64,000 nucleotides of DNA from Candidatus Woesearchaeota archaeon (GCA_964547875.1 CAZJPE010000002.1:42130-106129); one strand, 5' to 3'; shown: positions 1,255 through 63,133, numbered from the stretch's first letter. Program-made: numbers and translations. Notes: generated by a model not told the origin, from the sequence alone.

Positions 1255-4011
1255 ATGGAAGAAAATAAAATAGAGGAGAAAGAAAAAGAGTTTATTGCGG
1301 ATAAATCTGAAAAACTTGGAGATAAAACTGAGAGGACAAATTTAGGAGAGGAAGAGCTTATTAAAATAAGAAAGGAAAAAATTATTAAATTTTTTAAAAC
1401 GAGATATAACTGGATAGTTTACATAATTTTAGCATGGATTGTTTGGATTGCCGTCAGGATTAGGACGCGAAATTTAGACAGGTTGAGAGATATTACAACT
1501 GGGACATGGACGCTTGGGCCTGACTTGGATCCTTTCCTATTTTTAAGATGGGCAAAATATATTGTTGAGAACGGAACTTTATATGCTGTTGATACAATGA
1601 GATATGTTCCTTTTGGCTTTAGAACAGATAGCGAGCTTCTCTTTCATCCTTATTTGATGGCATGGTTTCATAAAATAGCCTTGTTTTTTGGGAGTGAATC
1701 TGTCACACATTCTGCCGTTTTGTATCCTGTGTTTATGTTTGCTCTTACAGTTATTGCATTTTTTTTATTTACTAGAAAGATATTTTTAGAGAGAGAAGGC
1801 GTATTAAAATCAAACTTTATTGCACTTGTTTCCTCTTTTTTCCTAACTGTATTTCCTATTTTTCTTCCTAGAACAATAGCCGGAATTCCTGAGAAGGAAT
1901 CTGCTGCATTTTTATTTATGTTCCTCGCATTTTATTTCTTTCTGGGAGCGTGGAATGCAAAAAAATTTAAAAACGGGATTTTTTTGGCGATATTAGCCGG
2001 CGCTTCAACTGCAGGAATGGCTTTAATCTGGGGTGGATATGCCTTTATATTTTATACTTTATTTGTAGCAACTTTTATCGCTTTTATATTGGGCATGTTC
2101 GATAAGAATAAGCTATATATTTACGCGACATGGATTTTATCTTCTTTTAGTTTAATGTTTCCTTTTTCAAGCAGATATCCGATAAAGAGCTTATTGGCTA
2201 ATTATGTGGTAGGCGTTCTTTTCATAGTTTTAGTAGATTTTTTAATATTTAATACAAATATAAAAAATTACATATCGAAGAAATTTTCTAAAATCCCGCC
2301 TCGAATAATGAGTCTTATTGTAGGAATTGTGCTTCTAGTTATTATTAGTTCAATTTTCTTCGGATTGAATTATTTTCCATCTCAAATAAAAGGTATTATT
2401 TCAAATCTTTCTCCTACAACTTCTAGAATTATTCAAACTGTTGCGGAAAACAAGCCTCCGTTTTTTGTTGAATGGGTTGGAAGTTTCGGACCAATTTTTA
2501 GAGGTATTCCAATTGTATTCTGGATATTTTTCATAGGTTCAATTTATCTCTTTTATAGAATTATTGGTATATTAAATAAAAAAGAAAGATGGGTAATGAC
2601 TATTGCCTATATAATATTTATATTGGCTCTAATATTTAGCAGATATTCTGGAAATAGCACTTTTAATGGTATAAATAAGGCAAGTTCGACTTTTCTATTC
2701 TCTGGTTTTATAATTATTTTAGGATCAATGTCATATTATTATTATCAATATTTCAAAAGGGGAGAGGAAAATAAATTTAAACAAATAGAATTGGGATACA
2801 TAATCCTGTTTGCATTTCTATTCTTAAGTCTTATTGCGGCCAGGGGGGCTATTAGATTAGTAATGATGCTGGTTCCCCCTATATCCATCATAGTTTCTTT
2901 TTTTGTCGTAGTTGGATTAAGCGAGGCAAAAAAATTAAAGGACAATATAAAACGAATAATAACTTTAATTTTTGTAGGAATAATAGTTATTGGAACTATA
3001 TTTTCAGGATATCAATTCTATAAGCAAATTAATGGGGAAGCAGCAGGTTATGCTCCTTCGGTTTACACCCAACAATGGCAGAAAGCCATGGCTTGGGTAA
3101 GAGAAAATACGCAGAAAGACGCCGTATTTGGACACTGGTGGGATTATGGTTATTGGTTACAATCAATAGGAGAGAGAGCAACTGTTTTAGATGGAGGCAA
3201 TGCGCAAGGCTATTGGAATCATTTAATGGGAAGACATGCTCTTACCGGAACAAATGATAGAGATGCTATTGAATTCCTTTATGCTCATAATACTACGCAT
3301 TTCTTGATAGATTCTAGTGATATAGGAAAATATACTGCTTTTTCCAGTATAGGTTCTGACGCAAAATATGATAGAGTTAGCTGGCTAAGTACTTTTTCAA
3401 AAGATAAAAACCAGATTGCAGAGACAAAGAACTCAACCATTTTTTTATATTCTGGAGGAACTAATTTGGATGAGGATATAATACATGAAGAGAACGATAC
3501 TAAAATATTCTTGCCAGGTGGAAAATCCGGCATAGGAGCGATACTTATAGAAAGAGACGCTTCTGGGAAGATTATTAGAAATCCAATTGGCATTTTCATT
3601 TATCAAAACCAGCAATATAGGCTGCCTTTGAGATATGCTTATTACAATGGGCAATTCTTTGATTTTGGCTCTGGGTATGAGGCAGGCATATTTATATTGC
3701 CTGTTGCATCTGAAAATGGCGTTATCGAGATAGATGGTGCACTTATATACCTGTCAAGAAGAACTGTAAAATCGCAACTTGCGCGCTTATATCTATACAA
3801 TGAAGATAATCCCTACTTTAAGCTTGCGCATAGTGAAGATGATTTTGTTGTTGCACAGATTAAAGCACAAAATCCTAATTTCGGAGATTTTGTTTTCTTC
3901 CAAGGTCTTAGAGGACCTATAAGAATATGGGAGATTGATTATCCAGAAGATATAGAATTTAAAGAGGAGTACATAAGCACTAAATATCCTGAAGAGCTTG
4001 AGATTTCATAA
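1255..4011 (+). CDS. aglB: Archaeal oligosaccharyltransferase AglB (STT3 family, GT66)
   Basis: 918 aa. About 13 N-terminal TM helices plus a large C-terminal soluble domain. Exact WWDYG motif (VFGHWWDYGYWLQS). Confidence 0.9.
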   Translation: MEENKIEEKEKEFIADKSEKLGDKTERTNLGEEELIKIRKEKIIKFFKTRYNWIVYIILAWIVWIAVRIRTRNLDRLRDITTGTWTLGPDLDPFLFLRWAKYIVENGTLYAVDTMRYVPFGFRTDSELLFHPYLMAWFHKIALFFGSESVTHSAVLYPVFMFALTVIAFFLFTRKIFLEREGVLKSNFIALVSSFFLTVFPIFLPRTIAGIPEKESAAFLFMFLAFYFFLGAWNAKKFKNGIFLAILAGASTAGMALIWGGYAFIFYTLFVATFIAFILGMFDKNKLYIYATWILSSFSLMFPFSSRYPIKSLLANYVVGVLFIVLVDFLIFNTNIKNYISKKFSKIPPRIMSLIVGIVLLVIISSIFFGLNYFPSQIKGIISNLSPTTSRIIQTVAENKPPFFVEWVGSFGPIFRGIPIVFWIFFIGSIYLFYRIIGILNKKERWVMTIAYIIFILALIFSRYSGNSTFNGINKASSTFLFSGFIIILGSMSYYYYQYFKRGEENKFKQIELGYIILFAFLFLSLIAARGAIRLVMMLVPPISIIVSFFVVVGLSEAKKLKDNIKRIITLIFVGIIVIGTIFSGYQFYKQINGEAAGYAPSVYTQQWQKAMAWVRENTQKDAVFGHWWDYGYWLQSIGERATVLDGGNAQGYWNHLMGRHALTGTNDRDAIEFLYAHNTTHFLIDSSDIGKYTAFSSIGSDAKYDRVSWLSTFSKDKNQIAETKNSTIFLYSGGTNLDEDIIHEENDTKIFLPGGKSGIGAILIERDASGKIIRNPIGIFIYQNQQYRLPLRYAYYNGQFFDFGSGYEAGIFILPVASENGVIEIDGALIYLSRRTVKSQLARLYLYNEDNPYFKLAHSEDDFVVAQIKAQNPNFGDFVFFQGLRGPIRIWEIDYPEDIEFKEEYISTKYPEELEIS

Positions 4012-19172: not shown

Positions 19173-20186
19173 TCACAAATATGTAAGTATTTTTTCAACA
19201 GAAATGCTATTTACTAATTTCTCGCTATAAAGATTCTGTTTTTCTGGAAAATACTCATAGAGCAAAGGAGAGACTATCTTTTTTAGTAGTCCATAGTCTT
19301 CCACTTCATGAGGGGTTGTGCAAAAGAACAAGCCTATTGTTGGCTTGTTCATTGCAAGGGAGATATGCAAAGCAAAACTATCAGAGCAGATTATTGTTTT
19401 GCAACAATTTATTAATGCTGCAAATTCTTTAATAGAATTGCTCGGATTATTCTTATGAATCAATATGTTTTCATTTTTCAACTCATTTATAAGAGGGCCT
19501 ATTTCTTCTGCTTCGTCAGGACCGCCGAATATTATTATCTCATAATTTCTTTCTTTTGCTTTCTTAACAAATTCTTTTATTTTTTCTTTTCCCCATGCCT
19601 TCGAAGGCCATCTTGAGCCTGCGCCCATATGAATTCCTATTAGATTTTCTTTTCTTATTTTATTCTTTTTTATGAAATTTTCTGCATAAATTTTTTCTTT
19701 TTCAGCTAAAATTATAGACGGACGCTCTTTATTATAAGATAATTCTGCAGCATCAAAGATCATTTCCTGATAAGTTTTTTTGTTTGATTTTTTTAATTCG
19801 TCATCAAACAGCGTGTTTAGATAATATTCTGCACTTGGATTAAACACTGCTGGATAATTGTCTTCTGAATAAAACCCCAGTTTCTTTTTTGCCATAATTG
19901 ATTGAGCCAAGGAAGTTGCTTCTTCGTCTATATCAAGATTGCATAATATATCAAATTTTAAATCTGTCTTAAATGGAATTTTTTCTATTTTATTTATGAA
20001 AGGATTGCTTTCAAATAACTGTAGAGCATTTTCTTTTGTAATCCATGTAATTTCTGCTTCTTTATATTTTTTCTTTAGTGCTTCTGCAATTGGAAGAGTT
20101 CTTACAACATCTCCTAATGCTCCTAATTTTATTATCACTATCTTCATATAATTTAGTTTAAAATAGAAGTTTTTAATCTTATCCAT
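19173..20186 (-). CDS. GT9-family glycosyltransferase (ADP-heptose:LPS heptosyltransferase-like)
   Basis: 337 aa. MKIVIIKLGALGDVVRTLPIAEALKKKYKEAEITWIT is the GT9 RfaF/WaaC N-terminal signature, with a GT-B C-terminal half. Confidence 0.75.
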   Translation of the reverse strand: MDKIKNFYFKLNYMKIVIIKLGALGDVVRTLPIAEALKKKYKEAEITWITKENALQLFESNPFINKIEKIPFKTDLKFDILCNLDIDEEATSLAQSIMAKKKLGFYSEDNYPAVFNPSAEYYLNTLFDDELKKSNKKTYQEMIFDAAELSYNKERPSIILAEKEKIYAENFIKKNKIRKENLIGIHMGAGSRWPSKAWGKEKIKEFVKKAKERNYEIIIFGGPDEAEEIGPLINELKNENILIHKNNPSNSIKEFAALINCCKTIICSDSFALHISLAMNKPTIGLFFCTTPHEVEDYGLLKKIVSPLLYEYFPEKQNLYSEKLVNSISVEKILTYL

Positions 20187-21741: not shown

Positions 21742-21791
21742 AGTTAATTTGCAAAGAGCAAACTTATAAACTTTATTAAGGTAGCAAGATA

Positions 21792-30795: not shown

Positions 30796-30871
30796 CTTTT
30801 CTTTCGTTAAATTGCAATTTTAATTGAATATATAAATTTTGTGATGTTTAACTTGTTTAAAGAAGTATGCT

Positions 30872-32197: not shown

Positions 32198-32226
32198 GAT
32201 TATAATTAAATTATTTAGTTTATAAA

Positions 32227-33886: not shown

Positions 33887-33937
33887 TTTATTGACTTAAA
33901 ATCTACTTTTATAAGCATTTATGTAGTAAATTTTAAA

Positions 33938-35770: not shown

Positions 35771-35815
35771 CTTTTTTCTCCTTAATTTAGATATATGTTT
35801 TATTTAAATCTCTTT

Positions 35816-42888: not shown

Positions 42889-42921
42889 GATTTTTGTCGC
42901 AGAGAGGGGAATATAAAGATT

Positions 42922-45344: not shown

Positions 45345-46265
45345 ATGAGAACTTTAGATTATGGCGTTATAGAAGGATTGTCTGAAAAATTTTCAAAGGA
45401 GGAAAATTTGTCGCTTTTCGAAAAAATGTGCTCAATACGGGCATTTGAATATAATGTAGCTGATGTTTTTGAGGCTGATTTTGAAAAAATGCCTGTTTAT
45501 TTATCAGTTGGAAGCGAGGCAGTTGCAGCTGCATTGGCCCTTTCTTATGGAAAGAAAAATCCTTCTATTTTTGCGCAGCATAGAGCTCATAGTTATTATA
45601 TTGCTTTCGGAGGCAATCTTGAGTCTCTTGTTGACGAGATGCTGCACAGACCAACAGGCTGCGCCTATGGAATGGGCGGCTCTGCTTCAATTCATTCTCC
45701 TGAAATTAAGATGCATGGGCATGACGGATTTATGGGAACACAGGTGCCCTTTGGAGTTGGCAGAATTTTTGCTGCCAATTATAGAGATAAAGAAAACAAA
45801 GAATATGGCTTGTGCATTATGGGAGATGCTTCTGTAGAAGAGGGCTATGTTTTTGGAGGTTTGGGATTTGCAGCACACAAAAATCATAAGATGCCTATTT
45901 TATTTGTATGCGAGGATAATAATCTCTCTGTTCTTACTAAAAAAGAAGTGAGAAGGAATTGGGAATGCTCTAATCTTGCAAAAAGCCTTGGCATGGAAAC
46001 AATTGAAATAGCAGATAATCCCTGGACAATCATGCATTATGCTAATGAACTTAAAAATAATCTGCCTGCGTTCATGAACATTCATTTAGTAAGGATTTTA
46101 AGACATGTAGGAAGCAAAAGTGATGGCTCTCCTGAATGGGACCGACTTGAGCTAACAAAACAGGAGCTTAAAAGAATAGGCTTGGGAATAGAAGCGGAAG
46201 AAATAGAAAGAAAGACAAAAAGATACACAGATAACTTATGGAAAAGAAAATTGGAGGAGTATTAA
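45345..46265 (+). CDS. TPP-dependent 2-oxoacid/acetoin dehydrogenase E1 alpha-like subunit
   Basis: 306 aa. TPP motif MGDASVEEG...CEDNN and E1 alpha-type VGSEAV / HRAH segments. Confidence 0.7.
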   Translation: MRTLDYGVIEGLSEKFSKEENLSLFEKMCSIRAFEYNVADVFEADFEKMPVYLSVGSEAVAAALALSYGKKNPSIFAQHRAHSYYIAFGGNLESLVDEMLHRPTGCAYGMGGSASIHSPEIKMHGHDGFMGTQVPFGVGRIFAANYRDKENKEYGLCIMGDASVEEGYVFGGLGFAAHKNHKMPILFVCEDNNLSVLTKKEVRRNWECSNLAKSLGMETIEIADNPWTIMHYANELKNNLPAFMNIHLVRILRHVGSKSDGSPEWDRLELTKQELKRIGLGIEAEEIERKTKRYTDNLWKRKLEEY

Positions 46266-47236
46266 ATGTAAAAATGACAGAGCAACTGCGTGAAACAATA
46301 AGAATAATATCTAGAAAACATTTGGAAGAGAATAACGGCTTATTATTAGGCCAATGCTTAACTGCAGTCGGGTGGGTTGGAAATACTATTCCTGAAATGC
46401 CTGAGAATAAGGGACTCGTAGAACTTTCAATGGATGACACATTTGCAGGATATTTTATATCTGGCATTGCTGCAGGAGACAAAGTCAGGCCTATTTATGT
46501 TGTTAGATATCAAGGCTTTCAATGGTTTAATGCAGTGGGCATTGTTAATTATGCTGCCAAGTCTAAGGAAATGTGGAAAATACCATGTCCTGTATTTGTA
46601 AGATCAATTGCAATGGAAGGAGGAGGCAGAAAAGGGAGAGACGAGAGAGCTATAGGACCTGTTGCTTCTGCAAGTCATCATGGAATATTTTACAGAATGC
46701 CTGGAATTCCGATTTGCGCGCCTGCAACTCCGAAAGAATACGAATCAATATGGAATCATTTTATGAATCATGACGATCCGCTTTATGTCAGCGAGCACAG
46801 AAGAGTTTGGGATGTTGATTATGAAATGCAAGATACATTGGAAAAAGATGCAGACATTACGCTATTTCCGATTTCTGCAACAAGATTAAATGCTCGCGAA
46901 GCTGTTGGAAGATTGGAAAAAGAAGCTGGAATTAAATGTAATGTAGTGAATTTGTTATGGCTAAAACCTCTTGATTTGAATAAAAAAGATGAAAAAATAG
47001 AATATTCCTTGAATAATTCAAGATGTGGGGGATTGGTCTTAGACGGAGATTACATAAACGGCGTTGCGAAAAATATAGCTTACGAGCTTATGCATAAATA
47101 CGAAAAGAAAATTTATGCGCTTGGTTTAGAAGAGAGAGCGTCTGGATTTGCGCCCTGGAATAATAATTTAGCGCCTACGCCTGATAGAATATATAGTTAT
47201 GTTAGATGGTTAGTTGGTAAGAATAAGAAGACATAG
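46238..47236 (+). CDS. E1 beta-like / transketolase-like Pyr-domain subunit
   Basis: 332 aa with pyrimidine-binding and C-terminal transketolase-like domains. An alternative start at 46274 would remove the overlap with E1 alpha. Confidence 0.65.
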   Translation: MEKKIGGVLNVKMTEQLRETIRIISRKHLEENNGLLLGQCLTAVGWVGNTIPEMPENKGLVELSMDDTFAGYFISGIAAGDKVRPIYVVRYQGFQWFNAVGIVNYAAKSKEMWKIPCPVFVRSIAMEGGGRKGRDERAIGPVASASHHGIFYRMPGIPICAPATPKEYESIWNHFMNHDDPLYVSEHRRVWDVDYEMQDTLEKDADITLFPISATRLNAREAVGRLEKEAGIKCNVVNLLWLKPLDLNKKDEKIEYSLNNSRCGGLVLDGDYINGVAKNIAYELMHKYEKKIYALGLEERASGFAPWNNNLAPTPDRIYSYVRWLVGKNKKT

Positions 47237-47282: not shown

Positions 47283-47813
47283 ATGAAGAAGGCGCTAATA
47301 TTGGCTGGAAAATTCGTGCAGGATCATGAATTTATTTATCCATATTACAGACTACAGGAAGAGGGCTTTAAAGTGACTGTTGCAAGTGAGGATGGGCAGG
47401 AAACAGTTGGAGCTGTTGGAATAAAAATTCCAGTAAACGAAAAAATTGAAAATATAAATCAAGAGGATTATGATTTGTTAGTTATCCCTGGAGGAGCAAA
47501 GGCAATGGAATATATGAGGCAGAATAAAAAGATCATTGATTTGATAAGCGGGTGGAATAAAAAGGGAAAGATAATTGCTGCAATTTGCCATGGAAGCCAA
47601 TTGCTTATTTCTGCAAAAGTAGTAAAGAATAGAAAATTAAGCGGATATTACAGTATAAAAGATGACATTAGCAATGCTGGGGCAGATTATGTGGATGCTC
47701 CGTTTGTTACAGATAAAAATATTATTACCTCGCCCCATTATAAGCATCTTGGGCCTTGGATGAAAGAAGTTTTTGGAGTGTATAAAAGAAAATATGGTGA
47801 TTTTAACAATTAA
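47283..47813 (+). CDS. DJ-1/PfpI family protein
   Basis: 176 aa with the AICHGSQLL nucleophile elbow. Confidence 0.85.
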   Translation: MKKALILAGKFVQDHEFIYPYYRLQEEGFKVTVASEDGQETVGAVGIKIPVNEKIENINQEDYDLLVIPGGAKAMEYMRQNKKIIDLISGWNKKGKIIAAICHGSQLLISAKVVKNRKLSGYYSIKDDISNAGADYVDAPFVTDKNIITSPHYKHLGPWMKEVFGVYKRKYGDFNN

Positions 47814-47832
47814 CAATTCGGAATTGGATAAT

Positions 47833-48555
47833 ATGAGATTATCAAACGTTTTAACGCCTATTGACACAACAATGAAGAATTTTGATTTTTCAAAGGTTAT
47901 TGTAAATAAACCATGGGGATATGAATATTTGGCATATGCAAACAAGAATATTGCTATCTGGATAATGTACATAAAGAAAAATTTCTGCAATTCCATGCAC
48001 TGCCATCTTGAGAAAAAAACTAATCTCATGCTGCTATCTGGAAAAGCTGTTTTTTCAACTCTTCAAGAAGGGCATGTGATAAAAGAGGGGGACATAATTG
48101 CCATAGATAAAAAATCCTTCCATTCCACTCAAGCTATTTCTGACGAAGGCATTTTTGTAATGGAGATTGAAAATCCTGTCAACAAAGTTGACTTATTGAG
48201 GCTGTCTGACGAATACGGCAGGGAAACAAAGGGCTATGAATCTAAAAATGAAATTTCACGCAATATAGACAGTTATAATGCTGTTTTCTTTGAGAATGAA
48301 GAATTTGATAAAGCAAAGAGAATCGGGAACATGGGCCTTTATTTCAAAAAATTTGAAGATGATAGAGAATTGATAGAGTACATGAACAGCAATAATGAAT
48401 CCATAAATGCTGTTGTTGAGGGGACAATTATCAGTGATATTTCTGGCGAGATGATTATGCCAGGGAAGTTTTTTTCAAATAATCATCCTGAAAATAAAAA
48501 TATAAAAATTCTAGAAAAGCCTTTAATTTTGCTTTCTATTTCAAGAAGAGATTAA
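47833..48555 (+). CDS. Cupin-domain protein (type II PMI / ManC C-terminal-like)
   Basis: KPWGYEYL...SMHCHLEKKTNLMLLSGKAVF. The ORF track starts at 47773 and overlaps the upstream gene; the ATG at 47833 is preferred. Confidence 0.55.
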   Translation: MRLSNVLTPIDTTMKNFDFSKVIVNKPWGYEYLAYANKNIAIWIMYIKKNFCNSMHCHLEKKTNLMLLSGKAVFSTLQEGHVIKEGDIIAIDKKSFHSTQAISDEGIFVMEIENPVNKVDLLRLSDEYGRETKGYESKNEISRNIDSYNAVFFENEEFDKAKRIGNMGLYFKKFEDDRELIEYMNSNNESINAVVEGTIISDISGEMIMPGKFFSNNHPENKNIKILEKPLILLSISRRD

Positions 48556-50591
48556 AATCTATTCTTTGAAATCCAGCTCTTTACTCCCTCTGATTCAAAT
48601 CTTACCTCCATTACCTCTGGAGAGCCTGCATTCTTCAACGCCCTTGCCAAATCATTTCTTTTTTTAGGGGAATGGAAGAATAAAAGATAGCCTCCATCTC
48701 CTGCTCCGAGAAGTCTCCCTCCATATGCGCCATTCTTTAATGCGCATTCGTATAATTTGTCCACGAAAGAATTTGAGATATTGTCGCTTAATTTTTTCTT
48801 GATTTCCCACGTTTCGCTCATTATTCTTCCAAATAATTCCAGCCTGCTGGTTAATAAGGCTTCTTTTATCTCCTCACTAAGTTCTTTCAAGCGAAATAGA
48901 GATTTTGTTTTTTCTGATTCGTCTTTCATGAAAAACGCCTCCTGCCTTTTATGAATATCTCCAGAATTGTGCGTGCGCCCTATATAACAAAGGAGCAGAT
49001 GATTCTCAAGCTCGTCAATTACTTCTTGCTTTAATTTCAATGGATAAACCAATGATTTGTCTTTTTCAAATTCTATGTAATTAAATCCTCCAACTGCAGA
49101 CGCATACTGATCCTGCCAGCCCCCTTTAATCTTCAGTTCTTCTCTTTCAACCTTATAAGCTAATTTTGCAATAGTATAATCGTCATGCTTATAATCCATT
49201 AACTGATCCAGCAGGCTTATTATCAGCACTGACAAGCTTGCTGACGAGCCTAATCCTCTTCCAGGAGGCACGTCACTTGCTACATATAATTCCAAGCCGA
49301 ATTCAGGATTCATTAGTTTTATTGCTGCCTTAATTAAGTCAAGCCTGCCGTCATAAACAAGCTCTTTAACAGAATTGGCAAGTATAATCCCTCCAAATTC
49401 CGAGTCAATAATTATTTTTTTATCTGCTCTTTTTATCAAGGTTGCGCTACAATATTTTTTAATTGTAGAATTTATGACACATCCCCCATATTTTTCAAAA
49501 AAATAAGGAATATCTGTTCCGCCGCCAGCGAAACTTATTCTTAATGGCACCCTGCCTCTTACAACAGGGAATTTTTCAGTTGTTATTTTCTCAATTCTAA
49601 ACTGCACATCCTTGACTCTCCCTTCATTATCTATAATTGGAAGATGATTGATGCCTGAAAATAATAATTCAGATATTCTTTCTTTTGTATCGTCGTGCTT
49701 TCCTGTAATTGGATCTCTGATCATGATAGATTTAACATCATCATCTATTTTTCCATTTCTTAAGATATGCTCCTTAATTATCCTATCATTGATAATGCCA
49801 ACGAGCTTTTCATTTTTATCTACAACCAAACCTAAATCTATTCCTGTTTTAGATATTTTCCTCATTATATCGCTTATTTTATTATGCTCTCTTACAAAAA
49901 GCCCTTTTATAATTCCCTCTTTAAATTCTTTGTAAGTTTCTGGCAAACCTATGTCAATAAAATAGCCTTCGTTTTTAAAGCACCATAATAAACCTTCTTT
50001 TGATAATTTGGGAAATATTTCCTTTTCCAAAGAGACATTTTTTTCAGGCTCTATATAATCAAAAATAATTGGCTCAAATAAATATGCTCCAACATTTATC
50101 AATCCCTTATTATTTTCTGCGCCTTTTTCTAAAAAGTCCAAAATTCTATCTCCGCTAATAGAAATTCTTCCGCCTCTGGAAGTATCTAGTACTTCTGTTG
50201 CCGCAATTGAGAACTTGCTTTTCTTTGTTTTATGAAATTCCAAAAATTTTTTTAAATCAATCTCAAAGTATGAATCTCCGTTTAATACCAAGAAGGTATC
50301 GTCAATATACCTCTCGGCTTTTTTTACTGCGCCTGCTGTTCCAAGAGGCACCTCTTCTTCAGAATATGTTATATTAACTCCCCATCTCTTTCCTTGACCA
50401 AAATAAGATTTTATTTTATCAGCCATATGGTGAACTGCGAGTATTAGTTCTTCTATACCCTGCTCTTTCAAAAATCTTATTTGATACTCTAAGAATGGCT
50501 TGCCTGCAATAGGAGCCATTGGCTTTGGCAAATCTGTGACTTCGGATCTTAAACGCGTTCCAAACCCGCCAGCTAGGATAACTGCCTTCAT
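48552..50591 (-). CDS. Fused sugar-1-P nucleotidyltransferase, CBS pair and GHMP kinase (HddC-CBS-HddA-like, Fkp-like order)
   Basis: 679 aa. N-terminus MKAVILAGGFGTRLRS (NTP_transferase), a mid CBS pair, and a C-terminal GHMP motif PPGRGLGSSASL. Confidence 0.8.
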   Translation of the reverse strand: MKAVILAGGFGTRLRSEVTDLPKPMAPIAGKPFLEYQIRFLKEQGIEELILAVHHMADKIKSYFGQGKRWGVNITYSEEEVPLGTAGAVKKAERYIDDTFLVLNGDSYFEIDLKKFLEFHKTKKSKFSIAATEVLDTSRGGRISISGDRILDFLEKGAENNKGLINVGAYLFEPIIFDYIEPEKNVSLEKEIFPKLSKEGLLWCFKNEGYFIDIGLPETYKEFKEGIIKGLFVREHNKISDIMRKISKTGIDLGLVVDKNEKLVGIINDRIIKEHILRNGKIDDDVKSIMIRDPITGKHDDTKERISELLFSGINHLPIIDNEGRVKDVQFRIEKITTEKFPVVRGRVPLRISFAGGGTDIPYFFEKYGGCVINSTIKKYCSATLIKRADKKIIIDSEFGGIILANSVKELVYDGRLDLIKAAIKLMNPEFGLELYVASDVPPGRGLGSSASLSVLIISLLDQLMDYKHDDYTIAKLAYKVEREELKIKGGWQDQYASAVGGFNYIEFEKDKSLVYPLKLKQEVIDELENHLLLCYIGRTHNSGDIHKRQEAFFMKDESEKTKSLFRLKELSEEIKEALLTSRLELFGRIMSETWEIKKKLSDNISNSFVDKLYECALKNGAYGGRLLGAGDGGYLLFFHSPKKRNDLARALKNAGSPEVMEVRFESEGVKSWISKNRF

Positions 50592-50662
50592 TTTTACTCT
50601 TTTTTGCTCCTCATTTTATAAAGCCGTATCTGGATAATATATAAACATTATGAGAAAATAGT

Positions 50663-51250
50663 CTATACTTTATTCTTTAAGATTATATTTGCAACTGCGT
50701 CGTAAAGATCTGATGCATGAAACGATGGCTCTATATCAATTAGATTTTCATTGCCTTTGCCCCCATATCCTGTTTTCACAAGAATTGTTTTGCACCCTGC
50801 AGACTTACCTGCATAAATATCACTCATTTTATCTCCAATGATATAACATCCAGATAAATCTTTTATGTTAAAATCTTTTTGCGCTTGCAGAATCATTCCT
50901 GGTTTTGGCTTCCTGCATTCACATTCTTTAGTGTAGATTGGATTATTTCCCTTGGGATGATGGGGGCAAAAATATATTTTATCCAATTTCGCTCCTTTTT
51001 CGTTTAACAATTCTCTCATGTAATTATTTAAATTCTCCACGTCATTTTGTGTGCAAATTCCTTTTGCTATAGCGGATTGATTCGAGATAATTATTATTCT
51101 ATAATTATTTTTGTTTAATAATTTTATTGCGTCTATTGTTTTATCAATCAGCTTAAAATCTTCCCTTCTATGAAGATGAATCCTTTCTTCGCAAATAACG
51201 CCATCTCTATCAAGAAAAACTACTTTCTCCATTATTATTGCTTTTGTCAT
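50663..51250 (-). CDS. gmhB: D-glycero-D-manno-heptose 1,7-bisphosphate phosphatase
   Basis: FLDRDGVI, SNQSAIAKG, YFCPHHP...CECRKPKPGM, IGDKMSD and VKTG motifs match E. coli GmhB almost motif for motif. Confidence 0.88.
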   Translation of the reverse strand: MTKAIIMEKVVFLDRDGVICEERIHLHRREDFKLIDKTIDAIKLLNKNNYRIIIISNQSAIAKGICTQNDVENLNNYMRELLNEKGAKLDKIYFCPHHPKGNNPIYTKECECRKPKPGMILQAQKDFNIKDLSGCYIIGDKMSDIYAGKSAGCKTILVKTGYGGKGNENLIDIEPSFHASDLYDAVANIILKNKV

Positions 51251-51324: not shown

Positions 51325-52302
51325 ATGGCAAAATCTATGATAACTGGGATTGGTGGGTTTGTTGCTTCGCATTTGGCGAATTATTTGGTTGGGAAGAACG
51401 AAGAGGTTTATGGAACTTATCGCTGGACAGAAGACCTTTCAAGAATAGATAAAATAAAAGATAAAATAAAAATGATTCCTGCTGACTTATTAGATTTAAG
51501 CAGTTTAATAAGGGCAATTGCAGACAATTATCCAGATTATATTTTTCATTTGGCTGCACAGAGTTATGTTCCAGATTCATTTACAAATCCGATTGTAACT
51601 GTTGAAACTAATACTATAGGAACAATAAATCTGCTGGAAGCTATTAGAATAATAAAAGATTACATAAACAAAGACTATGATCCTGTGATTCACTTGTGCT
51701 CTAGCTCTGAATTCTATGGAAGAGTTGACGAGCAGGAAATTCCGATAACAGAAAAACATCCAATGAGGCCTGGAAATCAATATGCTATTGGTAAGATAGG
51801 GGCTGATGCTGCTGGATATTTTTACTATAAGTATTATGGCTTGAAAGTCATTAGAACGCGCATGTTCACACATACTGGCTATGGAAGGACAATGATGTCT
51901 GCAGAATGCAATTTTGCAAAACAAATTGCATTAATTGAAAAAGGCAAGCAAGAGCCTGTTATAAATCACGGGAATTTGAACTCTGTCAGAACCTGGGCTG
52001 ATGTAAGAGATGCTGTGAGAGCATATTATATTTTAGTTAGGAAAGGAAAACCTGGAGAAGTTTATAACATAGGCGGAAATACTGTAAAAACCATTGGCGA
52101 GGCTCTTGATTATTTAATCTCATTAAGTCCTATGAAAGACAAGATAAAAAAAGAGCTGGATACTAAGCTTGTGAGAAAAATGGATGTAAACTTGCAGATA
52201 GTAGACATATCAAAGTTCCAAAATGAAACAGGCTGGACTCCGGAAATTCCTTTTGAAGAAACTTTATCAGAAGTCTTGAGATATTGGAGAGAGCACGTTT
52301 AA
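51325..52302 (+). CDS. GDP-mannose 4,6-dehydratase-like (possibly GDP-manno-heptose 4,6-dehydratase)
   Basis: 325 aa. ITGIGGFVASHLA, AAQSYVPDSF...GTINLLEAIR, SSSEFYG, HGNLNSVRTWADVRDAV and a C-terminal GWTPEI track Gmd along its length. Confidence 0.75.
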   Translation: MAKSMITGIGGFVASHLANYLVGKNEEVYGTYRWTEDLSRIDKIKDKIKMIPADLLDLSSLIRAIADNYPDYIFHLAAQSYVPDSFTNPIVTVETNTIGTINLLEAIRIIKDYINKDYDPVIHLCSSSEFYGRVDEQEIPITEKHPMRPGNQYAIGKIGADAAGYFYYKYYGLKVIRTRMFTHTGYGRTMMSAECNFAKQIALIEKGKQEPVINHGNLNSVRTWADVRDAVRAYYILVRKGKPGEVYNIGGNTVKTIGEALDYLISLSPMKDKIKKELDTKLVRKMDVNLQIVDISKFQNETGWTPEIPFEETLSEVLRYWREHV

Positions 52303-52304
52303 TC

Positions 52305-52673
52305 TTATAGATAATATTTTAAATTATTTTTTTCTTCATTAACAAACTTTTCTTCCGTTACTCCAAGGATAATCGTGCCTTTCTTTGCATAAGCTTTATG
52401 ATATATTCGCGGAGGGATTCTTATTCTATCGCCTGGAGATAAAATAACGCTTTGTCTTTCTTCAGTATCTATGTTTGTTAATTCATACCTTAATTCTCCT
52501 CTGAACACATACCAAATCTCTCCATATTCATGAAAATGGCCTCCTAAAAGACAATCTGTTTTTGTTTCTAGTGTTAATAATTGGCGAGCAGTAAAATCTC
52601 CATTAAAAATCTGTCTTAAAGTTCTTCTCTCATCATCATGACCTTCTCTAACCTTTTCAGATTGTGTTATCAT
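52305..52673 (-). CDS. Small single-domain cupin
   Basis: 122 aa. GGHFHEYGEIWYVFRGE. Confidence 0.5.
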   Translation of the reverse strand: MITQSEKVREGHDDERRTLRQIFNGDFTARQLLTLETKTDCLLGGHFHEYGEIWYVFRGELRYELTNIDTEERQSVILSPGDRIRIPPRIYHKAYAKKGTIILGVTEEKFVNEEKNNLKYYL

Positions 52674-53044
52674 TTTATCTCAAATTTTAAATCGTCTATT
52701 TCTGGAGAGGTATATTTCTCTTCATTTCCCTCAATCATAATATTTCCTGCTTTTTGCAATGCTTTGTGCGCAATATTCCTATCAATTATTATCATGTCTC
52801 CTTCTTGAACTTTCTTGTCAATTCTTTCTCCAGTAGATATATTAACAAACGTATAATCTGCGTCTCCTTTCATCAGATAAAAAAATTGCCTGTAAGGATG
52901 ATAATGGTTTCCAAGAACAGCGTCTTCCTTAATTTTAAGCAATTTAACTTGTTTTGCTGTGAATCCTCCGTTAAATATCTCTATGAGCGCTCTTCTGTTA
53001 TCTTCATGAACTGGTTTAATCTTTGTATGATATAGGCCTTTCAT
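52670..53044 (-). CDS. Small single-domain cupin, tandem paralog
   Basis: 124 aa. GNHYHPYRQFFYLMKGD. 4-bp overlap with the downstream cupin. Confidence 0.5.
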   Translation of the reverse strand: MKGLYHTKIKPVHEDNRRALIEIFNGGFTAKQVKLLKIKEDAVLGNHYHPYRQFFYLMKGDADYTFVNISTGERIDKKVQEGDMIIIDRNIAHKALQKAGNIMIEGNEEKYTSPEIDDLKFEIK

Positions 53045-53159: not shown

Positions 53160-54266
53160 ATGAAAAAAACAACTGTTGAGAAAAAAATTAATATTATATT
53201 CACAGGCCTATTTAGACAACAAGAATTGCTTAAGAAATCAATTGCCAATTTTATTAAGTTGCGAAAAGACAATCTTGTAGATAAGATAATTGTATCAACT
53301 TGGGACTACGAAGTCAAGAAAAATCCAAAAATGACTGATTTCTTAAAAAATAATGAGGTGATTGTTCTTGGCAGCAAAGAACCGAAAAAACGCGGTTTTG
53401 GAAATATAAACTGCCAGATGAAAGCGCTGGAAGCTGGACTTAGAGAGGTGAATAAAAAAAGCTTTGTATTAAAGACGAGAACAGACATATATATTGATCC
53501 ATTATTTTTAAAGGGATTATTCAAAAATAAAGAGAGAATATTGAGAATAAAATTAAATCTTCCCGACAATGTTTTTAGATACAAATTCTGGATTCCTTAT
53601 TTTGAGATAACAAAGCCGTTTTACTTAAGCGACGAGGCTTATTTTGGATATTATGAAGATCATAAAAAATTAATAAATTATAAACCTTATCACGATAGTT
53701 ATAATTTGCAGTCAGGGACTATTCACATGCAAAGGTGGTTTGAGCCGTTTTTATCAAAATATCCTGTTCTTAAGGACTTTATTGAGAATCATCCTCATGT
53801 TGGCTACCCTAAAGAAAATTTATTTTATAAAATTATTAAGAAAATTGCAAAACAAAACAGATTGACATTTAATTTGTTGAATTCTGTTACTGTCAGAAAC
53901 AGATTTAGGGTGCTAAAAAAACGCTTAGAGGATGAGAGATATGTTAATGTCCTTGCAGCCTATTATTCAATTTTATACAGCCATTTTTATATTAATGCAA
54001 AACCAGTAGACTATGCAATTAATAAGGAGGGTATTTTCAAAAGGGGCTCCCCATTTAATCCCAAAGTTAACAATCTAGATTTAATAAAAAATTATGTTAT
54101 GGAAAATGCAACTGGAAAAAGGCAGGGGCAGATTTACGCGTATAACGATGAGTTTCTTAAAAATATCTTTAATGGTAAGATAATAAAAGACGACTTTTCA
54201 ACAAGTTTGTTGGTTTCTATAGATAAGTTTTTTAATAGAAATCTTTTGGAGAAAAGAGTTAAATAA
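53160..54266 (+). CDS. Hypothetical protein (possibly a WavE-like polysaccharide synthesis protein; uncertain)
   Basis: 368 aa soluble protein. First gene of a plus-strand operon. Confidence 0.3.
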   Translation: MKKTTVEKKINIIFTGLFRQQELLKKSIANFIKLRKDNLVDKIIVSTWDYEVKKNPKMTDFLKNNEVIVLGSKEPKKRGFGNINCQMKALEAGLREVNKKSFVLKTRTDIYIDPLFLKGLFKNKERILRIKLNLPDNVFRYKFWIPYFEITKPFYLSDEAYFGYYEDHKKLINYKPYHDSYNLQSGTIHMQRWFEPFLSKYPVLKDFIENHPHVGYPKENLFYKIIKKIAKQNRLTFNLLNSVTVRNRFRVLKKRLEDERYVNVLAAYYSILYSHFYINAKPVDYAINKEGIFKRGSPFNPKVNNLDLIKNYVMENATGKRQGQIYAYNDEFLKNIFNGKIIKDDFSTSLLVSIDKFFNRNLLEKRVK

Positions 54267-54277
54267 AAGTTTATAAA

Positions 54278-55090
54278 TTGGACATTTTATATAAAAATAT
54301 GGATGGGAAAACTATTAAATGCGTCTCTATTGCTGAAAAACCGAGCTGTTTTGGAATTGAATTTCATAATAAAGGATATGAATTTTTTGGCTTAAATTAT
54401 GTTTATATTCCGCTTAAAGTAACCTCTAACAATCTTGAATCTACTATTCAACTTGTGAGGGAAAATTTCAAGGGATGCGGTGTTTCTATGCCTTATAAAA
54501 TAGAGGTTATAAAATACCTTGATGAGCTTGACGAATCTGCGGAAAAAGTTGGAGCTGTCAATACTATACTTAATAATGGACGATTAAAGGGATTTAATAC
54601 TGATTATTACGGGGCAAGAAGCGCGTTAAAAAATACACTAGAAATTGAAGGAAAAGATATTTTAATGATAGGGGCAGGAGGGGCTGCTCGTGCAATTGGA
54701 CATGCTGTAAAGGACTTGGATGGAAGGCTGTGGATTACAAACAGAACAGAGGCGAGGGCAAATGAATTGGCTTATATTTTGCGGGCTAAAACAATTCAAT
54801 GGCAAGAACGTAATTCATTTAATGCTTATTTGCTAATTAATGCCACAAGCATTGGCTTTAATAATATAAATGAATCTCCATTATTGAATGAATCTATTTC
54901 AAATTATGAGGCAGTGATGGATATTGTGCTTACAAGCGATGCTCAAAAAACCAGATTAATAAGAGAAGCAGAATCAAAGATGAAGATTGTAATTCCTGGA
55001 AGGACTATGACGATTTATCAGGCTGCAAAGCAATTTTATATCTATACGGAAAAGAAACTTCCAGAAGAATTTTTAAATAAATTTATATAG
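54278..55090 (+). CDS. Shikimate/quinate 5-dehydrogenase (AroE) family protein
   Basis: 270 aa. GAVNTI...GFNTDYYG and IGAGGAARAI Rossmann motif. Confidence 0.7.
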   Translation: MDILYKNMDGKTIKCVSIAEKPSCFGIEFHNKGYEFFGLNYVYIPLKVTSNNLESTIQLVRENFKGCGVSMPYKIEVIKYLDELDESAEKVGAVNTILNNGRLKGFNTDYYGARSALKNTLEIEGKDILMIGAGGAARAIGHAVKDLDGRLWITNRTEARANELAYILRAKTIQWQERNSFNAYLLINATSIGFNNINESPLLNESISNYEAVMDIVLTSDAQKTRLIREAESKMKIVIPGRTMTIYQAAKQFYIYTEKKLPEEFLNKFI

Positions 55091-55109
55091 ATTTATGCAG
55101 GAGAATTTT

Positions 55110-55805
55110 ATGGATTATAAAGTGTGTATTTTGGCTGCGGGAATAGGGAGTAGAATGCTTGAATTTACAAAAACCTTTAATAAGGTTTTACTTCCTATTC
55201 AAGGAAAGCCTGTTATTTGCCATATAATTGAAAAATTTCCTGAAAATATTGGGATTATTATAGCTGTTGGATACAAAAAAGAAGGAGTTATTGATTATTT
55301 GAAAACTGCTTATCCAAATAGAAAATTTAATTTTGTAAACGTGGGCAAATACGAAGGTGTTGGAACTGGCCCTGGATATTCTTTACTAAAATGCAAAGAA
55401 TATTTACAATGCCCATTTATTCAGTTTGCCGGGGATACATTAGTAAGGGAAGAAATTCCTTTCCCTAACAAAAACTGGTTTGGCGTTGCAGACGTTAAAA
55501 ATACTGAGAGATTTTGCTCTGTAAAGATTATGGGCGATAAAATAATAAGAATTGACGATAAAATAAAGAATGATAATAAACATGCTTTTATTGGCTTAGC
55601 TGGAATAAAGGATTATGACATTTTTTGGAGCGCATTGGAGAAAGATAAAAAATTTATTGCAGAGGAGTTACAAGTTTCTAATGGGTTTAGAGAACTGATA
55701 AATAAGGATTTACACTCTAAAAGATTTACATGGTTTGACACTGGAACATGGGAAGCTTATGATTATACGATAAAAAATTATCCAGATGGAGAATCTTATT
55801 CTTAG
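55110..55805 (+). CDS. Sugar-phosphate nucleotidyltransferase (LicC/MurU-like), short paralog
   Basis: MDYKVCILAAGIGSRM... Homologous along its whole length to the N-terminal half of 59037..60680, and the first 34 nt are identical. The ORF track starts at 55095. Confidence 0.7.
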   Translation: MDYKVCILAAGIGSRMLEFTKTFNKVLLPIQGKPVICHIIEKFPENIGIIIAVGYKKEGVIDYLKTAYPNRKFNFVNVGKYEGVGTGPGYSLLKCKEYLQCPFIQFAGDTLVREEIPFPNKNWFGVADVKNTERFCSVKIMGDKIIRIDDKIKNDNKHAFIGLAGIKDYDIFWSALEKDKKFIAEELQVSNGFRELINKDLHSKRFTWFDTGTWEAYDYTIKNYPDGESYS

Positions 55806-55859
55806 AGATTAAAGCATAAAAATATTTATAAACAATAATTGTAAATTTAATTAAATAAA

Positions 55860-56336: not shown

Positions 56337-56348
56337 ATATACAAAATA

Positions 56349-60680: not shown

Positions 60681-60681
60681 A

Positions 60682-61365
60682 ATGGCAATAGATAATGAAA
60701 GGCTATATGAGATGGCAGAATATGGCTTATTAAAGTTATATCTTCGAGAGAAGGAATCTGCATTAAAACATTTTCCTATTCATGAGGTTATGCAGGCGAC
60801 AGATATGATATGGGAAACTTATAAAAAAGGTGGAACAGTTTACGCCTGCGGAAATGGTGGCAATGCTGCTTCTGTCGGCAATCTAATTACAGATCTGGCT
60901 AATCACTTATTTGTTACAGATGACAAATCAAAACCTCTTCCAGAAAATATTCAGAGATTAAGGACTGTTGATTTATGCTCTTCTGGAGCAGCTCTTACTG
61001 CTTATTTAAATGACTTTGGAAAAGAATACGTGTTTTCACAACAACTTATCTGCAATAGGGTTGCAGAGGGAGATACTTTGTTTGGCTTTAGCGGAAGCGG
61101 AACATCAGGAAATATAAGAAAAGCATGTGAGATTGCAAAAAAACACGGCGCTAAAACAATTTTAGTGACGAGAAATAGGAATGCTGTATTGGAAGAACTT
61201 ATTGACTTAAGCATTGTTTTTGAGGGACATTCGCAATTTCCAGGACAAATAGGAAGCAATGACTTTAATTTCCATTATGAAGATCTTGGCTTTGCCATGG
61301 CTCACATGATTACAGGGCTATTGAGAAAGAGGATTTATGACGAACATAATAGAATCAAATCTTGA
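60682..61365 (+). CDS. gmhA: SIS-domain sedoheptulose-7-phosphate isomerase-like
   Basis: 227 aa. GGTVYACGNGGNAASVG and GDTLFGFSGSGTSGNIRKACEIAKKHGAKTILVT align with the GmhA motifs. There is an insertion in the middle relative to E. coli GmhA. Confidence 0.65.
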   Translation: MAIDNERLYEMAEYGLLKLYLREKESALKHFPIHEVMQATDMIWETYKKGGTVYACGNGGNAASVGNLITDLANHLFVTDDKSKPLPENIQRLRTVDLCSSGAALTAYLNDFGKEYVFSQQLICNRVAEGDTLFGFSGSGTSGNIRKACEIAKKHGAKTILVTRNRNAVLEELIDLSIVFEGHSQFPGQIGSNDFNFHYEDLGFAMAHMITGLLRKRIYDEHNRIKS

Positions 61366-63133
61366 AGAAAAAGCAAGAGAGATAAGAAAAAGCCTGATAA
61401 CTGCGCTATATCACGCAGATTCAGGACATCCTGGATCTTCTCTATCATGGACAGACATAGCTGCTAGCTTATTTTTTAATGAGATAAATCTTGAAAAAGG
61501 GGATAGATTTATGCTATCCAAAGGACATGCAGTTCCAACTTTATACGCAATATTATGCATGAAAGGTTATGCAGATGAAAAGAGATTTGAAAAAGAACTA
61601 AGAAAGATTGGCAGTCCTTTTCAAGGGCATCCTGTAGCAGGCACTCTCCCGCATATTTATGCAAGCACAGGCTCATTAGGACAGGGCTTATCATTTGCCC
61701 TTGGCATGGCTGAAGCAAAGAAATTATCAAAACAAAATGAAAGAGTTTATGTTTTGCTTGGAGATGGAGAGCTTCAAGAGGGGCAGAATTGGGAGGCATT
61801 TCGATATGGCTGCAACAGGAAGATGGATAATTTAATTGCTATTATAGACAAGAATGGCTATCAGAATGATGCTGCTGTTGACGAAACTATGCCCTTAGGC
61901 AATTTAGAGCGACAATTAGAGAGCTTTGGCTGGAATGTGATAAAGGTAGATGGGCATAACTTTAACGAACTAAGGCAGGCTTATGCTAATGCAAAAAAGA
62001 TATTGGGAAAGCCAACAGCAATTATTGCAGAAACTGTGAAGGGAAAAGGAGTTAGGCATATAGAATCAAACAGGAAAAAACATAATGGGGCCATGACTGG
62101 AGAGGAATATGTAAACGCCATGCTTGATCTGGGAGTTAAGATTAAAGAACCGCCAATTAAATTCCAAGCTAAAAACAGCATAAACAACGAGCCTGCTTCT
62201 GGGATAAGAGATGCTTTTGGCGAGGCGTTAGCTGAAGCGGGAAAAGAATATGGCCGCCTAGTGGTTGTTGACTGCGATTTAGGAAGCGCTACAAAAACCC
62301 TTAAATTTAAGGAAAAGTTTCCTGAGAGATTTTTTCAAGTCGGAATTGCAGAGCAGCATGGAGTTAGTCTAGCAGCGGGATTGGCAAAGGAGGGCTATCG
62401 CCCTTTTATCTCAAGCTTTGGTGCATTTTTAACGCAGAGAGCAAAGGATCAAATAATGAATTCTGTCGCCTACAGCAATGCGGGCGTTGTGCTTGTTGGA
62501 AGCCATAGTGGATTAGCAATAGGAAAAGACGGAGCTACGCAAATGGGAATAGACGACATTAATGCCATGATGGCGATACCAAATATGGAAATTTATTCTC
62601 CAGCGAGCGCCGTAGAAATCAAGCAAGTTGTTAATTATCTTGTAAATGGAAATCAATTCGCATATCTAAGAACATCACGCAGACCTGTGCCCAATATACA
62701 CGACAATAACTACTCTTTTAATCCTGAAAGAGTAGATGTTATAAAAGACTGCGGGCGGGAAAATGGAATAAGCATAATGGCGACAGGCGACATGGTTTAT
62801 TATGCCCTCCAGGCTGCCAAAGAGCTGGAAAAAGAGATACCTTTAGATGTAATTAATTTTTGCAGATTAAAGCCAATTGACAGAGAGAGCGTAATTTCCT
62901 ACGCAAGAAGAAGAGCAGGGATAATTACATTGGAAGATCATAGCATTATCGGGGGGCTTGGCTCAAGAGTGTGCGAGATAATTGCAGAAGAGGGTCTTGG
63001 AAAGAGAGTTTTAAGGCAGGGATTGCGTGACTGCTTTGGGGAGAGCGGCGAGCCCGAAGATTTATATAAAAAACATAAGCTGGATATTGAAGGCATAAAA
63101 AATTCCATGAGAGAATTCTATTTAGAGACATAA
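61337..63133 (+). CDS. tkt: Transketolase, N-terminal and C-terminal sections fused in one 598 aa polypeptide
   Basis: DSGHPGSSLSWTDI and GHAVPTLYA (N-section TPP binding), GDGELQEG, the pyrimidine domain GIAEQHGVS, and a C-terminal domain. 29-bp overlap with the gmhA-like gene. Confidence 0.85.
   Translation: MTNIIESNLEEKAREIRKSLITALYHADSGHPGSSLSWTDIAASLFFNEINLEKGDRFMLSKGHAVPTLYAILCMKGYADEKRFEKELRKIGSPFQGHPVAGTLPHIYASTGSLGQGLSFALGMAEAKKLSKQNERVYVLLGDGELQEGQNWEAFRYGCNRKMDNLIAIIDKNGYQNDAAVDETMPLGNLERQLESFGWNVIKVDGHNFNELRQAYANAKKILGKPTAIIAETVKGKGVRHIESNRKKHNGAMTGEEYVNAMLDLGVKIKEPPIKFQAKNSINNEPASGIRDAFGEALAEAGKEYGRLVVVDCDLGSATKTLKFKEKFPERFFQVGIAEQHGVSLAAGLAKEGYRPFISSFGAFLTQRAKDQIMNSVAYSNAGVVLVGSHSGLAIGKDGATQMGIDDINAMMAIPNMEIYSPASAVEIKQVVNYLVNGNQFAYLRTSRRPVPNIHDNNYSFNPERVDVIKDCGRENGISIMATGDMVYYALQAAKELEKEIPLDVINFCRLKPIDRESVISYARRRAGIITLEDHSIIGGLGSRVCEIIAEEGLGKRVLRQGLRDCFGESGEPEDLYKKHKLDIEGIKNSMREFYLET

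Follow-up and report, generated by a model that had tools for sequence, protein, structure and literature searches.

The DNA considered here is a stretch of 64,000 nucleotides from Candidatus Woesearchaeota archaeon (GCA_964547875.1, CAZJPE010000002.1:42130-106129), referred to as the window, and its central feature is a fusion gene on the minus strand (48552..50591). The open reading frame encodes a protein of 679 amino acids in which a predicted HddC-like sugar nucleotidyltransferase, a CBS pair and a predicted HddA-like kinase follow one another on a single chain. A second open reading frame, for a GmhB-type phosphatase of 195 amino acids (50663..51250, minus strand), is separated from the fusion gene by a spacer of 71 bp. 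The original prediction, made by reading the sequence alone, had described the 679-residue protein as a nucleotidyltransferase, a CBS pair and a GHMP kinase; Pfam finds all three parts and the quoted motifs are present in the translation. GmhB had been placed directly downstream on the same strand. Adjacency and strand are right, but the gene is upstream: since both genes are read from the minus strand, transcription reaches GmhB before the fusion, and GmhB has the higher window coordinates. The domain-scan scores of fusion and GmhB are far beyond chance, and we conclude that the finding is real and that its earlier interpretation was largely right.

The N-terminal domain (49917..50591, minus strand; residues 1-225) is predicted to be an HddC-like sugar-1-phosphate guanylyltransferase. 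Pfam places NTP_transferase on residues 2-225 (E 1e-37), and the stretch ILAGGFGTRL at residues 5-14 corresponds to the GxGxR loop of this fold. HddC is the top NCBIfam model for the domain (181 bits, E 2e-53) and Yersinia HddC is its closest solved structure (6jq8/5xhw; 146 bits, 38% identity), with a target TM-score of 0.89 in Foldseek. The runner-up in the PDB is 7whr, listed as a ‘Nucleotidyl transferase family protein’ (142 bits), and named mannose-1-phosphate guanylyltransferases reach at most 131 bits. In HddC the guanine is hydrogen-bonded by Glu80, which lies within the motif EXXPLGTGGA (PMC6981941). The aligned residue of the fusion, E79 (EEVPLGTAGA), is invariant in 40 family members, which makes GTP the most likely nucleotide.

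The C-terminal domain (48552..49568, minus strand; residues 342-679 and the stop codon) resembles the GHMP sugar-phosphate 1-kinases HddA and WcbL. Pfam GHMP_kinases_N and GHMP_kinases_C cover residues 419-656, and PPGRGLGSSAS at residues 442-452 is the phosphate-binding motif PxGxGLGSS. The NCBIfam ranking is led by HddA (274.7 bits, E 1e-81, residues 343-673), followed by Fkp (97.9 bits), mevalonate kinase (89.5 bits) and galactokinase (63.7 bits). The same order is seen in the PDB, where Campylobacter jejuni HddA (4n3o) scores 229 bits, a Bacteroides thetaiotaomicron protein (3k85) 203, Burkholderia pseudomallei WcbL 196-200 and Fkp about 70; the top structure in Foldseek is WcbL, at a target TM-score of 0.90 and a root-mean-square deviation of 2.4 Å. 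By all three comparisons the kinase groups with heptose-7-phosphate kinases and not with fucokinases or galactokinases, in line with the original prediction. WcbL loses its activity when R13, D22, S118-120, Q162 or D163 is mutated, and its authors linked Q162 to room for the extra carbon of the sugar (PMC4691232). These residues align with R351, D360, S449/S450/A451, Q493 and D494 of the fusion, the third serine being replaced by alanine. The family alignment shows no variation at R351, D360, S450, Q493 or D494 and almost none at S449 and A451. We assign the domain to a divergent, CBS-associated subgroup of HddA-like kinases.

The middle region (49569..49901, minus strand; residues ~231-341) might have been a mere linker, and three lines of evidence identify it as a genuine CBS pair, or Bateman module. 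The Pfam CBS model fits the region in two stretches, with a score of 40.5 bits that clears the cut-off of 24. A phmmer search with the 111-residue middle segment recovers the solved CBS pairs 2ef7 (E 2e-5) and MJ0100 and the Bateman domain of IMPDH. Finally, an AlphaFold model, built on an alignment of 40 family members and numbered one residue below the protein as the first row of the alignment lacks Met1, traces the order beta-alpha-beta-beta-alpha twice across the region, with a local confidence (pLDDT) of 87-95. On profile and model, then, we take the region to be a real CBS fold. For the whole chain the mean pLDDT is 88.4 and the predicted TM-score (pTM) 0.83, a value that suggests a defined arrangement of the three domains. 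The canonical CBS ligand motif, G-h-h-(T/S)-x-x-(D/N), binds the ribose-phosphate part. It is degenerate in the window protein, which reads GIINDRIIKE, and in the DPANN family consensus, GVLNDRIIK, whereas the form G-h-h-T-D-G-D-h-R-R is kept, as G(V/L)(V/I/L)TDG(D/N)IRR, by a group of two-domain CBS-kinases and by two other three-domain relatives (P0124 and P0153). Owing to this degeneration, the regulatory role that had been attributed to the pair is unproven. The CBS pair probably serves as a structural or dimerizing module that links the two catalytic domains, possibly with a role in ligand sensing.

The product of the upstream gene is predicted to be a GmhB-type HAD-IIIA heptose-1,7-bisphosphate 7-phosphatase. 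It passes the GmhB_yaeD model (TIGR00213; 153 bits against a cut-off of 149.6), narrowly misses the narrower PRK08942 (NF006506; 171.3 against 178 bits) and scores 132.6 bits on the alpha-type GmhB model (NF050049), whose cut-off is 250. The diagnostic motifs named in the original prediction, FLDRDGV, SNQS, FCPHHP...CECRKPKPGM and GDKMSD, all occur in the translation; they comprise the HAD motifs DRDGV, SNQS and GDKMSD and the zinc loop CPHH...CECRKPKPGM.

How widespread is this architecture? The fusion had been called unusual, and full-text literature searches found no description of it or of GDP-heptose synthesis in DPANN archaea. As a protein, however, it is common: full-length relatives with the same architecture form more than 120 clusters at 90% identity in the protein database and are 52-83% identical to the window protein. 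The suggestion that related archaea be searched for the same fusion has thus been fruitful, as many relatives share it and those that are named are DPANN archaea, assigned to Nanoarchaeota, Woesearchaeota or Pacearchaeota. They are annotated generically or, by JGI, as ‘heptose-7-phosphate kinase’. When 1.84 billion cluster representatives (50% identity) were searched with a query that covers the two domain junctions, only four full-length three-domain representatives were returned; one of their clusters has a further member, P0285, that bears the label of a Rhodospirillaceae genome bin. The same query matched many two-domain proteins of ~445-480 amino acids in which a CBS pair is combined with an HddA-like kinase.

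A profile scan of genome contigs yielded, among the matches listed, mostly bacterial loci with separate hddC, gmhA and hddA genes. This was a useful contrast but a poor sample of the fused family, and a metagenome scan was therefore added. The comparison of neighbourhoods covers 18 fusion-carrying loci, the window included (L numbers designate loci). A zinc-loop GmhB lies near the fusion and on the same strand in 7 of the 18, within 2 kb in the window, L001, L005, L006, L007 and L009 and at 7 kb in L095; in L001 and L006 the GmhB stop codon overlaps the start of the fusion. In L006 a canonical GmhA, with H61, E65, Q172 and H180 present, stands directly beside the fusion. Related activities are also found joined in other ways. 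An uncultured archaeon (L062, 5822-9633) encodes an HddA-GmhA protein (GHMP and SIS_2, 530 amino acids) and a GmhB-HddC protein (427 amino acids), followed by a short-chain dehydrogenase/reductase (SDR), so that all four GDP-heptose enzymes are predicted to be contained in two polypeptides, and a Clostridia bacterium (L081) carries an HddC-GmhB fusion followed by HddA. The joining of the same four activities in different pairs supports a functional link between them. A Pacearchaeota genome bin (L007) has within 10 kb of the fusion an HldE-like gene (21608-22055) for a protein of 512 amino acids with a PfkB and a cytidylyltransferase-like domain, and both routes of heptose activation may coexist in that genome. 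In L005 (9003-9869) and L008 (131-679) a gene of the inositol-monophosphatase family is directly upstream of the fusion and divergent from it. No GmhB was found in L008, whose contig ends ~800 bp upstream of the fusion. The inositol-monophosphatase-family gene may encode a non-orthologous sugar-bisphosphate phosphatase.

Several genes around the pair have possible roles in the same pathway. An extended SDR (51325..52302, plus strand, divergent) bears the motifs SSSEFYG and YAIGK. Its best solved relative is 7US5, a GDP-D-glycero-D-manno-heptose 4,6-dehydratase (242 bits, E 8e-71); the GDP-6-deoxy-4-hexulose reductase 2pk3 comes next (217 bits), GDP-mannose dehydratases reach at most 121 bits and the LegB model scores 120.7 bits. 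Homologues are located directly upstream of the fusion in five loci (L089, L090, L092, L093 and L097) and within 10 kb in several others. The SDR is probably a GDP-heptose 4,6-dehydratase, and its adjacency points to a 6-deoxyheptose as product. Beside it are two tandem small cupins of 122 and 124 amino acids (52305..53044, minus strand; Pfam Cupin_2), which might serve as epimerases or ketoisomerases of the sugar nucleotide. In L092, L093 and L097 homologues of these cupins immediately precede the SDR-fusion pair; a PDB sequence search with the one at 52670-53044 gave nothing informative. On the other side a cupin of about 253-260 amino acids (47773..48555, plus strand) converges with the fusion. 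It is mannose-6-phosphate isomerase-like by the JGI name of its homologues, which carry PF01050 or PF07883 and are found near the fusion in L003, L005, L008 and L009. A PDB sequence search detected no informative solved relative of this cupin, a possible aldose-ketose isomerase for the pathway.

Further away, a SIS_2 protein (60682..61365, plus strand) finds its best NCBIfam and PDB matches exclusively among phosphoheptose isomerases; the NCBIfam score is 64 bits, where the cut-off is 209, and 1x94 is matched at E 1e-16. It was at first assumed to be GmhA. Alignment with the Escherichia coli enzyme revealed that H61 is replaced by Asn and E65 by Asp, that Q172 is not conserved and that only H180 is kept, whereas none of the four is lost from the SIS proteins in L006, L062 and L103. 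We therefore consider the window protein a candidate, non-canonical sedoheptulose-7-phosphate isomerase. Its gene overlaps that of a transketolase (61337..63133, plus strand), which passes NF004559 (516 bits; cut-off 488) and might supply sedoheptulose-7-phosphate; in L001 a split transketolase is convergent to the fusion. The two belong to an operon-like set of three end-to-end genes (59037-63133, plus strand), with a gap of 2 bp and then an overlap of 29 bp. The first of the three encodes a protein of 547 amino acids that has an APH-like kinase domain and, at its N terminus, matches a nucleotidyltransferase weakly. This set of transferase-APH kinase, SIS protein and transketolase may lead from a ketose phosphate to a sugar nucleotide by a second route that is not homologous to the first.

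Based on these observations, we propose that the fusion carries out two of the four steps of GDP-heptose synthesis, the second and the fourth, with the free GmhB phosphatase acting between them. As kinase and transferase domains share one chain, a single polypeptide would account for both steps. The kinase domain would act on heptose-7-phosphate, the separate GmhB would take off the 7-phosphate and the N-terminal domain would then join heptose-1-phosphate to GTP. The product would be turned by the adjacent SDR into GDP-6-deoxy-4-keto-heptose, tailored, and transferred into a surface glycan in an AglB-dependent manner. From the domain identities and the conservation of residues and neighbourhoods we infer the substrates, the products, the order of the steps and the part played by the CBS pair. 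The genomic context is favourable to a heptose: a gene of the glycosyltransferase family 9 (GT9; 19173..20186, minus strand), which is the heptosyltransferase family (Pfam Glyco_transf_9, 73.4 bits, E 2e-20), a transketolase beside the GmhA-like SIS gene and a small nucleotidyltransferase like rfaE domain II are all present in the window, and the HldE-like gene occurs in L007. We estimate the probability of this scheme at about 60%.

A number of observations weigh against it. Both catalytic domains remain under the equivalog cut-offs of the families to which they are closest, the transferase with 181 bits against 300 for HddC (NF049965) and the kinase with 274.7 against 600 for HddA (NF049969). 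The mannose-1-phosphate guanylyltransferase model of NCBIfam gives the transferase domain 166.8 bits, near the score of HddC, and in P0124 and P0153 it outscores the HddC model. In a neighbour-joining tree, a rough guide computed without outgroup or bootstrap, the CBS-bearing kinases stand apart from the HddAs that have been studied biochemically or structurally, to which they are 34-38% identical. No GmhB was found in the available flanks of 11 of the 18 loci; four of these 11 have full 10-kb flanks on both sides. With H61, E65 and Q172 lost from the SIS protein, canonical GmhA is absent from the 64 kb, and the SIS gene stands in an apparent operon with a different kinase-transferase gene. 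Lastly, the conserved convergent neighbour of the fusion is a cupin resembling mannose-6-phosphate isomerase.

That cupin leads directly to the main rival of the heptose scheme, in which the substrate is mannose-6-phosphate. The cupin would supply it, the kinase would place a phosphate on O-1, GmhB would remove the 6-phosphate and the transferase would produce GDP-mannose for the SDR, in this case a GDP-mannose 4,6-dehydratase; a reduced genome would thereby possess a route that dispenses with phosphomannomutase. The closeness of the mannose-1-phosphate guanylyltransferase score (167 bits) to that of HddC (181) is in keeping with this, as is the activity on a GDP-hexose of the second-best solved relative of the SDR, 2pk3 (217 bits), and GDP-fucose synthase-like SDRs are encoded in the island. 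Yersinia HddC was itself assayed with alpha-mannose-1-phosphate (PMC6981941), and crystals of WcbL bind unphosphorylated mannose (PMC4691232). Nevertheless the kinase retains Q493, the counterpart of the glutamine tied to the extra carbon, the phosphatase is of the zinc-loop GmhB type and the best match of the SDR is a heptose dehydratase. Canonical GmhA neighbours the fusion in L006 and forms one protein with the kinase in L062, and GT9 and HldE-like genes are found in the same islands. We know of no GHMP kinase that phosphorylates mannose-6-phosphate at O-1, which also counts against a hexose. The choice of heptose over mannose is one that we infer, and we judge the mannose route to be unlikely.

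A role in salvage and a role in nonulosonic acid synthesis are less likely than either of these two. DPANN archaea depend on scavenging, and the enzyme might work like Fkp, the kinase phosphorylating at O-1 a free heptose or hexose obtained from the host and the fused transferase activating it directly, with no phosphatase step. A fusion of kinase and transferase is most sensible for consecutive steps, as in Fkp, the mannose seen in WcbL crystals carries no phosphate and the 11 loci in which GmhB was not found near the fusion would be accommodated. On the other hand, several relatives couple the translation of GmhB to that of the fusion, HldE offers a precedent for the fusion of non-consecutive steps and the kinase is far closer to sugar-phosphate kinases than to Fkp, galactokinase and other free-sugar kinases. 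Direct salvage therefore appears quite improbable. More improbable still is a supply of GDP-hexosamine or a similar precursor to a legionaminic-acid-type pathway, as suggested by the sites of the two-domain CBS-HddA-like kinases (30-37% identical to the junction region), which cluster with SIS_2, NTP_transferase, DegT, NeuB, SDR and CMP-sugar synthetase genes without a HAD phosphatase, by the 120.7 bits of the SDR on the LegB model and by a KdsC-like phosphatase in the window (55860-56336); we rank it low because no NeuB-type synthase or CMP-sugar synthetase (CTP_transf_3) gene is present among the window open reading frames scanned, and it leaves the adjacency of GmhB unexplained and has to contend with an SDR that resembles GDP-heptose dehydratase twice as closely as it does LegB-type models.

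The proposed GDP-heptose scheme shares with the bacterial pathway the families of kinase, phosphatase, guanylyltransferase and dehydratase and the validated catalytic residues. It differs in that kinase and transferase, which in bacteria are separate proteins, as the original prediction stated and as we find in L013 and L019, are here linked through a CBS pair into a single chain. Further differences are the archaeal host, the AglB island in which the genes stand and the absence of canonical GmhA from the window. A closer formal parallel is HldE (RfaE) of the ADP-heptose pathway, in which kinase and nucleotidyltransferase steps are likewise on one chain and GmhB acts between them, showing that the fusion of non-consecutive steps is viable (introduction of PMC4691232). 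HldE, however, combines a PfkB kinase with a cytidylyltransferase-like domain in the opposite order, works on the beta anomer, yields an ADP-sugar and has no CBS pair. Homology was rejected, given that Pfam finds neither HldE domain family in the fusion, and the similarity is a case of convergence.

A resemblance to Fkp, the bifunctional L-fucokinase/GDP-fucose pyrophosphorylase of Bacteroides, had also been noted. It extends to the domain order, with the pyrophosphorylase N-terminal and the GHMP kinase C-terminal, and to a GDP-sugar as product. The transferase is of a different family, as the pyrophosphorylase domain of Fkp is not a member of PF00483, and Fkp has no CBS pair and performs consecutive steps that start from the free sugar. 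Membership of the Fkp family was rejected: the fusion obtains 97.9 bits on NF009948, whose cut-off is 721, through its kinase part only, the full-length structures differ by a root-mean-square deviation of 28.7 Å and the kinase domains are 24% identical. The two-domain CBS-HddA-like kinases (~445-480 amino acids, mainly from metagenomes) have the CBS-kinase junction in common with the fusion and group with its kinase in the rough tree. They differ from it in lacking the transferase domain, in their canonical GhhTDGDhRR motif and in occurring in clusters with NeuB and without a HAD phosphatase. In L103 (5150-12990) and on the contig of P0132 such kinases, of ~450 amino acids, are clustered with a canonical GmhA-like SIS_2 protein, NTP_transferase, DegT, AP_endonuc_2, NeuB, an SDR and a CMP-sugar synthetase. 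The alternative fusions of L062 and L081 unite the same four activities with other partners and without a CBS pair, at ~32-34% identity to the window protein. Among archaea, one case of a heptose was found in the literature, in the N-glycan of Thermoplasma (PMC11407970), and archaeal HldE-type enzymes for beta-heptoses have been described.

What are the implications of such an enzyme? Within an understudied lineage the fusion represents a novel variation on an established pathway, and the small archaeon from which it comes is probably host-dependent. Heptoses are typical of bacterial envelopes. If the proposal is correct, a single-chain GDP-heptose synthase is encoded in AglB islands across many DPANN genomes, and these episymbionts are coated with bacterial-style 6-deoxyheptose glycans. 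The surface is where host-dependent archaea meet their partners, and such a coat would bear on host recognition. The fusion would be a second, independent joining of kinase and nucleotidyltransferase around a free phosphatase, after HldE. In addition, it points to a wider and unstudied family of CBS-bearing HddA-like kinases, and as a fused enzyme it might be of use as a compact biocatalyst for GDP-heptose.

The window is essentially one N-glycosylation island. It is marked by an AglB/STT3 oligosaccharyltransferase (1255..4011, plus strand; Pfam STT3 and STT3-PglB_core), which is followed in a row by a GT4 phosphosugar transferase and a flippase (1255-6232 in all, plus strand), and a second PMT_2/STT3-like protein is encoded at 8647-10530 on the minus strand. 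The island also comprises several GT2 and GT4 genes, RmlC-, RmlD- and FdtA-like genes, the GDP-fucose synthase-like SDRs and four radical-SAM genes. The G+C content across the window is 26-37%, and tRNA and Rfam scans of the 64 kb gave no match.

Near the fusion, two overlapping genes (45345-47236, plus strand) encode a thiamine-diphosphate pair like the alpha and beta subunits of pyruvate dehydrogenase E1, the alpha subunit matching human pyruvate dehydrogenase E1 alpha with 70 bits. L003, L005, L007, L008 and L009 each have the pair no more than 10 kb from the fusion, and the copy in L008 is 82-87% identical, above the identity of the fusion itself. E1-like pairs of this kind, AviB1/AviB2 and Pau11/Pau12, have been proposed to place a C-4 acetyl branch derived from pyruvate onto antibiotic sugars (PMC4753412). 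A DJ-1/PfpI family gene (47283-47813, plus strand) is situated between the E1-like pair and the convergent cupin, with 73-79% identity in L003, L005, L008 and L009. One may speculate that in archaea the fusion opens a so far undescribed pathway whose end product is a heavily modified, branched or chain-extended sugar: GDP-heptose would be converted to its 4-keto-6-deoxy form, the E1-like pair would add a two-carbon branch, cupins, SDRs and B12-dependent radical-SAM enzymes would tailor the sugar, AglB would display it on the surface and the CBS pair would gate the flux in response to a nucleotide ligand. Taken as a whole, this elaborate version is doubtful.

Other gene sets of the island may contribute to different branches of sugar metabolism. 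On the minus strand, 28288-38002 encodes a PhyH-family dioxygenase, one HemN-like and three B12-binding radical-SAM enzymes, a GDP-fucose synthase-like SDR and a short-chain dehydrogenase, a combination that suggests extensive C-methylation or other tailoring of sugars. A trio at 41719-43542 combines an AAA_33 kinase and a HAD phosphatase with a small cytidylyltransferase-like gene (41719-42237), for which the best match, at 72 bits, is rfaE domain II, the heptose-1-phosphate adenylyltransferase. All three genes are found again in L008, and the phosphatase and the kinase also in L005 and L091. The logic of kinase, phosphatase and transferase resembles the ADP-heptose route, but the type of kinase differs. 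Genes at 53160-57149 (plus strand) encode a protein of 368 amino acids, a shikimate dehydrogenase-like protein, a second NTP_transferase, the KdsC-like phosphatase and a protein of 266 amino acids with a weak match to mannose-6-phosphate isomerase, which together may form another sugar-nucleotide or ulosonic-acid branch. Finally, a MazE/MazF (PemK) toxin-antitoxin pair is inserted at 57885-58462 (plus strand), inside the glycan island.

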